Positions 9,001-12,000 of a stretch of DNA of 16,503 nucleotides are shown in pieces. Position numbers: made by a program. Source of the DNA: a virus (lineage: Duplodnaviria > Heunggongvirae > Uroviricota > Caudoviricetes); the IMG/VR virus record IMGVR_UViG_2703718806_000013, one strand, 5' to 3'. Every line of letters starts with the position of its first letter. Position 1 is the first letter of the stretch.

Positions 9001-12000
9001 GGCTCATTGGTTTGCGGATTTGTTCTTCCAGTTCGCGCCAGCGGTCTACCAGGCGGGCGGTGAATTCAGGGCAAAGCTGTGCGACAACAATGATGCTGTC
9101 GCGTTTGCCTTGTTCGCCTTCAAACAAGTAATGCTCATGTTGAACTTTAAACCCTAAGTTATTGATTTTCTCGGAAACAGCCATTGGCGGTTTCCGGATT
9201 ATGCTTTTGGCAACCAGGCGTTCGATACTACGTTTAACATCTGAATGCTGGCTTCCCACCAGCTCTGCGATCTCAACGCTGGTCATGGATGCTTTGCCGT
9301 TAAAAATTACGGTGTTCACTGCCATCTCCTTACGGATAAATTCTTTTAAGATTCCGCACTTTCGTACTTATTGGTGCCGAACCTTCCTTCAGTTATCCTG
9401 TTGATCCCTATAAACAAAAGAACCAAAGGAGGTTCGACATGAAAGTTCAGGCCGTTGGTTTATTCTGGTTTCGCGATGCGATTCAGTATCATGAGCTCAA
9501 AAATATTTTTACTGATGCTGATGTGCTCTCCGACAGTTACACCGAGTGGAAACACGACGCTGAAAAATTGATTAAGCGTGTCGAAAGAAGCGGGCAACGA
9601 GTTATTAAAGTTGAAGCGGATACAGCCGAGTTCATCGCCTGGTGTACAAGCGAAGGCATTGGAATCAATGCCGAAGGTAGAATGCAGTTCGCATCCTTTA
9701 AGGCTTACCAACAACTTCTCAGCGAACGCTAATGTGATTGGGGCAATCGAAATGGTTGCCCCATCGTATTTAATAGTTATTTTTTCGCTCATATCACCAC
9801 CATCACTTCTCATCCTCTGTGTGCGCTAAGCTTGGGTGTGGGAAAAGCTCCGGTAGATCAGGACGAAATTCATACGCCTGGACTTTCCCATCAACCGCCT
9901 TAACCAGAGACGGAACAAATTCAGGAGAAATTTTTTTCTTCCCATTCAGCCAGTCGCAAATTGTTGACTGCGCGCGACCACAACGCTTTGCCAGAGCAAG
10001 CTGGCTTCCTGCAATATCTACAGCCTTGGCTATACCTTCATTTTTCATATCGACCTCCAGCCTTATGATATTCACTATAGCGATTGAATAAAGCGATTGC
10101 AATGCGCGAAAAAGCGGTTTGTGTATATATCGCTAAGGCGATACACTAAAAGGACAGAAAAAGGAGGACTTATGAGCTTTTCAGACAGGCTACAGTTAGC
10201 TATGACTATCCGAGGATACTCACAGGGAAAACTGGCCAGAGAAGTTGGCATGGCTCAATCGAGCGTCAATAAACTGGTTAATGGTGCCACGGGTTCAAGA
10301 AAAGTTGTGGAAATCGCCAATATCCTGAACGTACGCCCTGAGTGGCTATCATACGGCGTTGGCCCTATGAACTCAGAAGAAAGCACATCCTGCAATCTGA
10401 CACCGCAGGAATCATATCCCCCGCAAGAAAATGATAAGGATATTTTTCGTGTGGAAGTCCTGGATATCGCTGCCAGCGCGGGACCAGGAACATTCCTTGT
10501 TTCAGATTTTGCAGAAACGGTCCATGCTATAGAATTTTCACATGACGCCGCAAGACGTCTGTTCTGTAGCAGGCCAGCAAATATCATAAAGATGATAACA
10601 GTTGATGGCGACAGCATGGCTCCTACTCTGTGTGCAGGAGATCAGGTGTTTGTCGACGTATCCGTCAGAAATTTTGAAACTGACGGTATATATATTTTTA
10701 TTTTTGGGCACACCTTCCATATCAAACGCCTGCAAATGCAAGGGATGCAACTTGCTGTTATATCAGACAATCCGGCCTACAAGGAATGGTTTATAAGTGA
10801 ATCAGCTGAAGAACATCTATTCATAATGGGGAAAGTTCTCATTCATCAGTCAATCCAGTATAACAGGGTCGGATAAGTCAATATCACCGGCAGCTGTATT
10901 GCGCAGCTGCTCTACTTTCCTGTATCTCAACTCCCTACGTATCGTCTCATTTCTCTCATAATCTGTTCTTTGCTGCCCAAAATACATAGCTATAGCGATT
11001 GACATAACCAAACGCCCTGGCTATTGTAAAATTAAAACAACAGGAGGCTCATATGAAGCATGCAGTTAAGGTGATGGATGAAATTGCAGCACAAATACAA
11101 GAAGGCGGCTCGCTGCTTGGAATGATCTATTCCTACATGTCAGAAAACGGAGCAGAAAGTGAGAGGGTTTATAATGCAATCAGATGCCTGATGCGTTCCC
11201 TGCAAAAAACAGAAGAAACTGCATCAATTTTTGCAGAAAAACTATGTGAGGCAAAAGCTATGGTTTCGCATGGTCACTTTTTTGGAAAAATCCGTGCCCA
11301 ACGTGAAGCCTGCGGCTTAACGACCACCGAACTTGCCAAACTGCTTGATCTCGATGAAGAGATCATCCTGCAATGGGAGAGCGGAGAGTTCGAACCGACC
11401 ATCAGCATGCTTATCCCCCTGGCAAACGTCCTTGGGTGCGATCCTCTTTCTTTGCTGGATGAAAAAGATAGCGCGTCTGTTATTCGCGTAAATGTGCCAG
11501 AACCACGGGAAGAAAGTATTGGCGCTCGCATCAAAAGCGTCCGTAAAAACCTGGGATTAACCGAATCTGATCTTGCCCGCATGATTAATACCTACAGCGA
11601 CCCCATAAACGACTGGGAATGCGGCATCCATGAAGTTCCAGCTGCTCAGATAGTACCACTGGCCAGTGCTCTTAATTGTGACCTGATGTGGTTGTTAACG
11701 GGAAAATCAGAAGCAAAGGAGCAGCAACAATGACTGGCAATATCCATGATAAGTATGAAGGCTTATGCCTGACACCGGATTCCTTTGCAAACAATATCCA
11801 TAATTTATTATGCGCAGTTATCGTATTACAAATGTCAGACAACGACGCAATAAAAAGAACAGGTGATGAAGTTCTTGAATTTGCACGTTGCTATGCTGAA
11901 GCAGCAGCTGAAAAAGAACTATCCAGTTAAATAGAACAAGTCATCTCCAGATACTATATTACGGCTTAATCGCCGGGGATTATCACACACTTAATCCACA

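Follow-up and report, generated by a model that had tools for sequence, protein, structure and literature searches.

How is a gene used that lies directly behind cro and points against the early operon of its phage, and which of the two overlapping reading frames at that place is the real one? The question is raised by IMG/VR record IMGVR_UViG_2703718806_000013, a Caudoviricetes sequence analysed here over a whole stretch of 16,503 nucleotides (nt), which we call the window. The "rightward early operon" of this phage is the minus strand of the window, and nested in it is a plus-strand open reading frame (ORF) of 97 residues. The first-pass annotation, made from the sequence alone, had described this ORF with its Shine-Dalgarno sequence and a hairpin past its stop codon, had noted an overlapping minus-strand ORF at 9460-9813, and had left a choice: either the plus-strand ORF is a moron expressed against the flow of early transcription, or the minus-strand ORF is the real gene. 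All of these elements are present where they had been placed, and the gene does lie directly after cro, convergent with the transcription unit of the cro promoter. We propose, with a probability of about 0.72, that the plus-strand ORF is a real accessory gene (moron) in a swappable, counter-oriented slot directly after cro, as judged by comparison of related loci. The argument uses the following features.

9439-9732, plus strand: 97-residue gene, ATG start, TAA stop, phrog_4753 family; WP_000867913.1, hypothetical protein, in the Prokaryotic Genome Annotation Pipeline (PGAP)
9425-9432, plus strand: Shine-Dalgarno sequence AAAGGAGG, 6 nt 5' of the ATG
9371-9399, plus strand: promoter-like element, with -35-like TTGGTG (9371-9376), a 17-nt spacer and -10-like TATCCT (9394-9399), conserved in all enterobacterial relatives
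9739-9763, plus strand: terminator-like hairpin of the plus-strand gene, starting 7 nt past the TAA; 11 pairs, 6 of them G-C, -18.3 kcal/mol, z = -3.4 against shuffles
9792-9460, minus strand: ORF of the cro operon, 110 residues from the ATG at 9792, stop codon 9462-9460; its ATG lies 11 nt past the cro stop, and it is codon-register antisense to the plus-strand gene
10048-9806, minus strand: cro-like helix-turn-helix (HTH) gene, first in the early operon, stop codon 9805-9803; Pfam YdaS_toxin (E = 1.9e-15), phrog_35, PGAP "transcriptional regulator"
10102-10074, minus strand: PR-like promoter that drives cro, TTGCAA-17-TATAGT, 9/12 matches, recognised by its placement relative to cro and the divergent repressor gene

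Which strand selection reads inside the overlap can be seen from sixteen distinct DNA versions of the plus-strand gene. Their variable columns fall on plus codon positions 1, 2 and 3 as 30/13/75, and the ratio of nonsynonymous to synonymous substitution rates (dN/dS) is 0.083 in the plus frame versus 1.1 in the codon-register antisense frame that holds the minus ORF. The protein matches phrog_4753, a family of unknown function, over its full length (residues 1-97 on profile positions 1-97 of 97, E = 1.5e-49), and a profile search of 1.8 billion representative proteins returned 1,129 related clusters at E <= 1e-3. Taking these results together with a confident predicted fold, comparative evidence indicates that the plus-strand ORF is a genuine protein-coding gene under purifying selection. 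Close relatives (73-99% identity) occur in E. coli, Klebsiella, Salmonella, Serratia, Pectobacterium and Phytobacter; relatives are mostly 90-110 residues long, include high-GC members and follow the family pattern G..W[YF]...D...LP.TY..W...G..V.K...P..F..WC...G...DA..R..FA. In E. coli UC4224, PGAP calls exactly this ORF and nothing on the minus strand.

The reverse assignment, in which the minus ORF would be the only real gene and the plus ORF its antisense shadow, could appeal to the operon strand, to the greater length of the minus ORF (117 residues when counted from the ATG at 9813) and to some gene callers and annotators, who do call it (a 39-member cluster, the EKP1 record and a 147-residue call in locus L008). 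However, the substitutions follow plus-strand coding, and the plus family has about 1,100 clusters, high-GC members among them, and a confident fold with a solved structural relative; the minus product has neither. This half of the original choice therefore fails, and we give it practically no chance: the plus frame alone is under purifying selection in the overlap, the opposite of conservation confined to the minus frame. Homology searches of both proteins, which the first-pass annotation had suggested, separate them in the same way, with phrog_4753 for the plus protein and no family match for the minus product.

The AlphaFold2 model of the plus protein gives some idea of what it may do. It is a beta-alpha-alpha-beta-alpha-alpha domain, with a predicted local distance difference test (pLDDT) score of 81.6, that takes up all 97 residues. 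In the viral structure set, two uncharacterised phage proteins were the sole structural matches. The fold also resembles just the C-terminal half of SO3848 (PDB 2ox6), at 12-15% identity. SO3848, itself uncharacterised, is structurally homologous to the anti-CRISPR-associated repressor Aca2 and consists of an N-terminal HTH and a C-terminal dimerisation domain made of beta1, helices, beta2 parallel to beta1 and two extra helices (PMC8434428). The topology so described for its C-terminal domain is that of the 97-residue protein. Unlike the SO3848, Aca2 and YdiL regulators, the plus protein is without an HTH (no HTH family match in Pfam at E <= 0.1) and without sequence similarity to them (no Pfam or PDB sequence match); the structural match is to half of one uncharacterised protein, Aca2 and YdiL themselves not being retrieved. 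The resemblance is a fold-level lead, not family membership, and from it we infer that the plus protein may be a stand-alone protein-binding module like the C-terminal domain of SO3848. On the model, it is most likely a small cytoplasmic alpha/beta protein-binding or modulator module and not a DNA binder or an enzyme.

Some members of the family (P0019, P0025 and P0038) are fusions of two or three tandem copies of the 97-residue domain with long, charged, coiled-coil-like linkers, which hints that the domain acts as a repeated binding module. Premature stops are present in 2 of the 16 DNA variants (L026 and L037, plus-strand gene at 5001-5294 in each, codons 37 and 36, respectively), consistent with a dispensable cargo. 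No Pfam domain was found in any of 56 aligned plus-strand relatives scanned singly, a PDB search with the alignment profile of the plus family gave no match, and the PADLOC-DB defence models gave none at E <= 1 for the plus protein, the minus ORF or Rha. A literature search by protein accessions and PHROG number found no record.

The sequence in front of the gene identifies it as the cargo of a platform. A block of about 70 nt 5' of the ATG, composed of TTGGTGCCGAACCTTCC, the -10-like hexamer and GAACC.AGGAGGTTCGAC-ATG, is conserved in all enterobacterial relatives, including one with a 34%-identical protein. Within the promoter-like element, the TTG of the -35 and A2 and T6 of the -10 are invariant (forms TTGGTG-17-TATCCT/GATATT), and GGAGGTTCGAC-ATG is invariant or nearly so in relatives and ahead of unrelated cargo genes. 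The 5' untranslated region of a transcript begun just past the -10 would be unstructured (9400-9460, z = +1.0). The whole cassette is present in 93 of 5,426 complete E. coli genomes; other genomes match its first 71-73 nt alone, and in these block-only genomes other genes take the same slot and orientation behind the block. It stands at 97% identity ahead of a BssS-family gene (phrog_10846), also ahead of a 151-residue ORF and, at 82% identity, ahead of a 131-residue phrog_36733 gene that is displaced from cro by one more gene, a ydaT-like one. Scanning IMG/VR for the exact pattern of the block yielded 78 stretches. Together with the loci already collected they give 112 block matches, of which 83 also contain the block's second half, and the ORFs behind the block made up six unrelated families.

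phrog_4753: 97-residue and 92-residue forms
two families: each about 150 residues
BssS: 83 residues
a further family: an 88-residue protein
a further family: a 70-residue protein

By this comparison the platform carries at least seven cargo families in all, phrog_4753 included. A fixed expression platform with variable, dispensable payloads is what leads us to a moron slot. The moron proposed at first reading is thus well supported: the gene is under selection and has a ribosome-binding site of its own, a promoter-like block and a hairpin, both conserved, and a slot that holds unrelated cargos in sister prophages.

Some single platforms deviate. In E. coli E92 (L059, 3069-3100, plus strand) the BssS-family cargo is out of frame with the platform ATG, with eight A's versus seven in the IMG/VR copies (L069). 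PGAP rescues the E92 ORF via an upstream non-ATG start, and either a homopolymer sequencing error or a real frameshift accounts for the difference. In the non-E. coli platforms L038, L040, L007, L054, L055, L057 and L058, TTTTCCACA lies between the -10-like hexamer and the ribosome-binding site, about 25-35 nt 5' of the ATG; it fits the DnaA-box consensus TT[AT]TNCACA. The lineage of the window has a different sequence at this position. A sigma-54 promoter and LexA, CRP and CII sites were also considered for the block and rejected, because the spacing or motifs in the aligned sequences, read by eye, do not fit.

The position of the gene recurs across hosts and immunity regions. In every recovered locus it is on the strand opposite to cro and directly downstream of it, with the repressor gene beyond cro on the gene's own strand, and the convergent position is held in E. 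coli, Klebsiella, Salmonella, Serratia and Pectobacterium. The cro genes at the locus belong to at least three families that Pfam tells apart (YdaS, lambda Cro PF09048 and P22_Cro), others being cro-sized genes with no Pfam family, and the next operon gene also differs between loci (Rha, Bro-N or unrelated ORFs). A 33%-identical relative is likewise convergent with a YdaS-type cro, their stop codons being 2 nt apart. The exception is a distant relative, gp17 of Burkholderia phage Bcep176, which lies in a co-oriented block near immunity genes; searches for loci with single distant family proteins gave zero or one locus each. In E. coli strains with a different cro and repressor (e.g., SE11), identity to the window runs through the cassette and ends at about 9836-9840, in the last cro codons. 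Therefore, the 3' end of cro and the start of the minus ORF travel with the cassette and not with the immunity module. One further locus, L050 (OM284015.1, "Elizabethkingia phage EKP1", 4001-4396), has an enterobacterial-type cassette with neighbours like those of Klebsiella prophage loci. Its annotators called the minus ORF (110 residues) rather than the conserved plus gene, and its host assignment looks doubtful.

How, then, would such a gene be expressed? Transcription from the PR-like promoter at 10102-10074, which drives cro, would run antisense across the cassette, and mutual interference of the convergent transcripts is plausible. As read from the map, the cassette lies inside and antisense to the PR/cro operon, in the manner of a noncontiguous operon. 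We propose that the portable platform comprises a weak sigma-70-like promoter, a strong ribosome-binding site, the cargo ORF and the terminator-like hairpin. While PR is repressed in lysogeny, the predicted cassette promoter and the strong ribosome-binding site would yield the 97-residue protein, and the hairpin would end the plus transcript before cro. Once PR is active in infection or induction, polymerases and antisense RNA from 10074 onward would cross the cassette and silence the gene, and the operon strand would be translated from cro through the minus ORF towards Rha. Such switching would share the logic of the antisense genes nested in phage 80alpha operons (PMC11087260). The odds tilt slightly in favour of lysogen-specific expression of the 97-residue protein.

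Several points weigh against the moron and its proposed expression. The promoter-like element is weak (3/6 and 4/6 matches) and went unreported by our consensus scan, and the T-tract of the hairpin, which continues as a broken T-rich tail (TCGTATTTAATAGTTATTTTTT), is broken, variable and poor in several relatives. Since no sequence match to the plus protein turned up in Pfam, NCBIfam, PADLOC or PDB, any function given to it is a guess, and the SO3848 similarity is to one structural-genomics entry, with an aligned range inferred from topology. As to the hairpin itself, the stem past the stop codon is kept in relatives, with G-U-compatible changes on the plus strand (A to G, stem position 6), and distant relatives have a different hairpin sequence at the same place; in the window it falls inside the 5' coding part of the minus ORF. 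Because the T-tract is broken, termination at 9739-9763 may be leaky.

Leaky termination would also suit an establishment promoter of the PRE type, whose transcript would encode the 97-residue protein, pass the hairpin, run antisense to cro and enter the repressor gene at 10173-10876, placing the gene in the lysogeny-establishment circuit. The geometry is that of lambda PRE, a promoter beyond cro pointing back through cro to the repressor gene. The weakness of the promoter is typical of activator-dependent ones; the T-tract is imperfect; and in the relative whose cargo stop is 2 nt from the cro stop, the transcript must overlap cro. However, the same block drives unrelated cargos beside unrelated immunity modules, so that a common phage activator is unavailable, and this makes a PRE-like role less likely. 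CII-type TTGC-N6-TTGC repeats were not seen in the aligned block sequences, no cII-like gene is evident in the window by Pfam, PHROG or PGAP, and the hairpin is conserved and stable at -18.3 kcal/mol. We regard a PRE-like role as improbable. The comparison with oop that accompanied the first description is only loose: there is a convergent unit after cro, but it is a protein-coding cassette and not a small antisense RNA, and it has no Rfam match. In lambda, oop is non-coding and 77 nt long, and the activity of PRE requires CII. Both share with the cassette a leftward-pointing unit just past cro, convergent with PR and possibly exerting antisense effects; the cassette differs in encoding a conserved protein (294-nt ORF), in having neither an Rfam match nor CII-type repeats and in standing beside unrelated immunity modules. 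Across 9200-10200, Rfam gave no family at E <= 1 except a chance microRNA match.

The minus ORF calls for an account of its own. A codon-register antisense frame is closed solely by the sense codons TTA, CTA and TCA. In 12 lineages these antisense stop codons were observed 4 times versus 18.3 expected from the loci's own codon usage, and the other A-ending codons of the same lineages were barely depleted (181 observed versus 214.7 expected). All 4 lie in plus codons 5-25, which are the 3' end of the minus ORF. In control blocks, each of 97 codons and drawn from the loci's other genes, the mean number of antisense stops is 3.25, and only 11% have none; against these blocks, seven conservative lineages give P = 7e-5. 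Other cargos of the slot have ordinary numbers, from 4 in 83 codons to 12 in 151, and TTA, CTA and TCA make up 17% of their Leu and Ser codons versus 3.5% here.

Signals at both ends of the minus ORF point the same way. Every lineage has a ribosome-binding site and a start codon 1-50 nt past the cro stop (GGGAGGCGTGAC-ATG in Klebsiella-type loci, GGTGGTGA ahead of the ATG at 9792 in the window). In eight loci the stop of the ORF overlaps the start codon of the following operon gene, as ATGA, as GTGA or over 8 nt. A 2-nt indel in the tail sets two lineages apart, and although it puts their last dozen residues in different frames, both ORFs run on without a stop to where the next gene starts. 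The first 20 minus codons occupy the 60 nt from the plus stop to the minus start. Here the minus frame has a ratio of nonsynonymous to synonymous polymorphism (pN/pS) of 0.30, against 0.85-1.5 for four other frames, and the variable columns of three groups fall on minus codon positions 1, 2 and 3 as 2, 0 and 7; 7, 6 and 16; and 1, 3 and 4. The N-terminal motif [IV]T[IV].Y..G....I.[IV][AS]P[IV]T recurs in a 34%-identity subfamily, again with synonymous changes. From these comparisons, selection probably acts on the open minus frame and on a short N-terminal peptide, and we put at a little better than even the chance that ribosomes of the cro operon translate the minus ORF through the cassette. 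Of the either/or choice made at the outset, the plus-strand gene stands and the exclusiveness does not, since the minus ORF shows several independent signs of translation.

The minus ORF could nonetheless be an ordinary shadow ORF, with only the plus gene decoded, the frame open because TTA, CTA and TCA are infrequent and the start and stop coupling coincidental. Much counts on this side and against translation. In this register just three sense codons can supply stops, and the lineages of the depletion test are not fully independent. Inside the overlap, the minus-frame dN/dS of about 1.1 means no residue-level constraint, and there is no local drop in plus-strand synonymous variation. In the 60-nt segment, one plus frame shares third positions with the minus frame and has a pN/pS of 0.41, so the periodicity is shared. 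The AlphaFold2 model of the minus product has no confident fold (pLDDT 44.8); Pfam and PHROG gave no match for the minus ORFs of six lineages, apart from a chance-level PHROG match for that of the window; and 13 aligned minus ORFs gave no Pfam match singly and no PDB match by alignment profile. BssS and the same-slot cargos of about 150 residues do without a bridging ORF, and PGAP leaves the minus ORF uncalled. However, the depletion far exceeds what codon usage predicts, the control blocks and the other cargos of the slot do carry the missing codons, and the few stops found are confined to the 3' end of the minus ORF. The low pN/pS and the third-position bias lie outside the plus coding sequence, and the plus frame with the ratio of 0.41 has no ribosome-binding site and, in one lineage, contains a stop. 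In all lineages the cro stop is followed by a ribosome-binding site and ATG, eight loci overlap the next gene, and the ORF is open despite a frameshift. We therefore hold a mere shadow to be unlikely. An AbrB/MazE-like fold was considered for the minus product, from G-x-x-I-x-I-A-P-I-T-L and a beta-beta-alpha-beta-beta order in the low-confidence model, and was dropped, as no profile search supports it.

If the minus ORF is translated, the locus might be a two-strand coding unit, in which a lysogeny-phase accessory protein on the plus strand is paired with a minus ORF of 110-150 residues that is translated in lytic growth, kept open by selection and begins with a conserved peptide. The minus ORF would then either keep ribosomes moving over the cargo, which would shield the early transcript and link cro with the gene that follows, or supply a lytic-phase partner or antagonist of the cargo. 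We offer this tentatively, at somewhat less than even odds from the sequence comparisons. Protection of the early transcript from Rho is one candidate reason for the open minus frame. It is no general requirement, because BssS and the cargos of about 150 residues lack a bridging ORF; a general rule of an open operon-strand ORF against Rho polarity was rejected for that reason and for the normal antisense stops in BssS and both families of about 150 residues. The phrog_36733 cargo (131 residues, hydrophobic N-terminal stretch; L061, 2568-2963, plus strand) has an antisense frame that is fully open over 131 codons. In L061 a 161-residue minus ORF (2496-2981, minus strand) lies over it and ends at the start of the next gene; L138, L143 and L144 are related loci. 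An 88%-identical relative of this cargo has a single antisense stop, at codon 22. The open antisense frame in phrog_36733 could be a recurring solution for antisense cargos in early operons.

The flanks of the cassette carry structure in the operon RNA as well, and one further feature has to be added.

9375-9439, minus strand: long inverted repeat with arms at about 9375-9394 and 9421-9439, folding best in the minus-strand RNA of the PR operon, just upstream of the next operon gene

The right arm is complementary to the ribosome-binding site of the plus-strand gene. The repeat folds with -30.4 kcal/mol as minus RNA (z = -5.0) versus -22 as plus RNA (z = -3.8). An alignment of 15 naturally collected sequences has 89.8% of its cells paired and 5 pairs in which both partners have changed. 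Its covariation score, 0.211 versus 0.152 for shuffles, was matched in 0 of 500 of them, and slid registers give at most 50% pairing. On minus RNA 254 of 283 cells pair versus 232 on plus RNA, with 31 versus 9 G-U pairs. A stem that sequesters the ribosome-binding site in the plus mRNA was rejected: the left arm lies between the -35 and the -10 and would not be transcribed from that promoter, and wobble pairs favour the minus RNA. A transcript from the cassette promoter would lack the left arm and leave the ribosome-binding site open. This hairpin therefore most likely belongs to the PR transcript, where it precedes the next operon gene and may act in processing, stability or insulation.

These structures could be taken to mean that the cassette is chiefly a cis-acting barrier, in which PR read-through is limited, as by tR1, through convergent transcription, hairpins and a partial terminator, and the protein is incidental. 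The operon RNA is indeed structured at both flanks (9763-9739 and 9439-9375, the latter with the folding energy and covariation just given), and the flanks are more conserved than the cargo. From cro to Rha the minus strand is without a convincing intrinsic terminator, its single weak terminator-like site being one of 5 bp at 9435-9420. That site is found in the E. coli lineage only, however, and both flanking hairpins are without a minus-strand T-tract. The cargo protein is under strong purifying selection and widely conserved, and cargo swaps on a kept platform argue that the cargo is the payload. A barrier with an incidental protein is thus very unlikely, and we keep to the accessory gene. 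The short terminator-like hairpin with its T-run at 9420-9435 (minus strand; GAACCTCCTTTGGTTC TTTTGTTTAT) lies 25 nt past the minus ORF stop. It shares bases, and so competes, with the 9375-9439 hairpin, and its T-run occurs solely in the E. coli lineage, in which the minus ORF is truncated; an attenuator-like alternative fold is possible.

The genomic setting is that of a Shiga-toxin prophage. The 1.2 kb around the cassette are 100% identical to the chromosome of E. coli UC4224 (Stx1a prophage) and about 99.5% identical in several other Shiga-toxin-producing strains. The annotated UC4224 record has a lambdoid Stx1a prophage whose integration site adjoins yecN and cmoA. On the minus strand the gene order is cro-like, Rha, BRO-N, Rha, HTH replication-initiator-like, DnaC-like, DnaB-like, DUF968, Q antiterminator, stx1A and stx1B; the plus strand carries the CI-like S24 repressor, further early-left genes, xis and int. 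The plus-strand gene is thus nested in opposite orientation between the operon genes cro and Rha, with eight further minus-strand genes down to Q and stx. The remaining features of the immunity region and the next operon gene are these.

10042-10069, plus strand: divergent promoter-like site between cro and the repressor gene, from the consensus scan
10173-10876, plus strand: S24/HTH CI-like repressor, by Pfam and PGAP
8613-9320, minus strand: Rha family gene (Ant-like), next in the early operon; Pfam Phage_pRha, phrog_63, PGAP coordinates

The Rha gene starts 135 nt past the end of the minus ORF, and the consensus scan of 8500-11100 reported no promoter-like site for it. Farther along the operon, Rfam places a C4 antisense RNA at 7496-7583 (minus strand, 83.6 bits) beside an isrK RNA at 7608-7684 (minus strand, 67.3 bits), both within the 5' part of the PGAP coding sequence 6888-7739 (Rha family). 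The pair looks like the antirepressor control module of P1 c4-icd-ant or Gifsy-1 IsrK type, and the start of that coding sequence has probably been called too far upstream. A strong terminator-like hairpin on the plus strand (8587-8607; GGCCGG...CCGGCC, then TTTCTTATTT) lies between the BRO-N and Rha genes of the minus strand and therefore opposes the operon.

The locus recalls several known systems. Phage morons, such as lambda rexAB, bor and lom and those of HK97/HK022-type phages, are usually co-oriented insertions in late or immunity-left regions. Our gene is like them in its promoter-like element, its terminator-like hairpin, its place between two conserved genes, its presence or replacement in related phages and its dispensability; it is unlike the classical ones in lying antisense inside the early-right operon, on a conserved exchange platform. 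Noncontiguous operons have been described for S. aureus menE-menC/MW1733 and for phage 80alpha, in which ith/tha, orf11 and orf17 are nested in operons (PMC11087260, PMC7154746), and in 80alpha the nested antisense genes were shown experimentally to switch expression between lysogeny and lysis (PMC11087260). Our locus resembles them in the opposite orientation of the nested gene and, by prediction, in an own promoter and in operon transcription antisense to that gene. In contrast to 80alpha, it belongs to Gram-negative lambdoid prophages, has a fixed post-cro position and a block common to many cargos, carries an operon-strand ORF apparently translated through the antisense gene, and is read from sequence alone. 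Antisense overlapping genes in E. coli O157:H7 and Pseudomonas, e.g., ano, asa and the "shadow ORFs illuminated" (PMC5960689, PMC6294744, PMC8850804), are similar in that a long ORF lies antisense within an established gene, with translation signals and some selection. Those cases come from ribosome profiling of single genomes, whereas ours is comparative (stop depletion, coupling, N-terminal pN/pS) and concerns a codon-register overlap without residue-level constraint.

What is already known is thus the plus gene as an annotated hypothetical protein in a PHROG of unknown function, and antisense genes nested in operons. The fixed post-cro slot with its shared block, the covarying operon-RNA hairpin and the comparative evidence of operon-strand decoding through a cargo appear to be new. 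If our reading is true, the slot would be an undescribed accessory-gene hot spot in lambdoid prophages, Shiga-toxin phages included. The block is directly searchable and would give a catalogue of candidate lysogeny-phase genes (phrog_4753, BssS-like, phrog_36733 and others). The noncontiguous-operon principle would then reach the early-right operon of enterobacterial phages, with a simple tie of cargo expression to the state of PR. The minus ORF would also be a tractable test case in the dispute over translation and selection of long bacterial antisense ORFs, as one change that is synonymous in the plus gene can close it.

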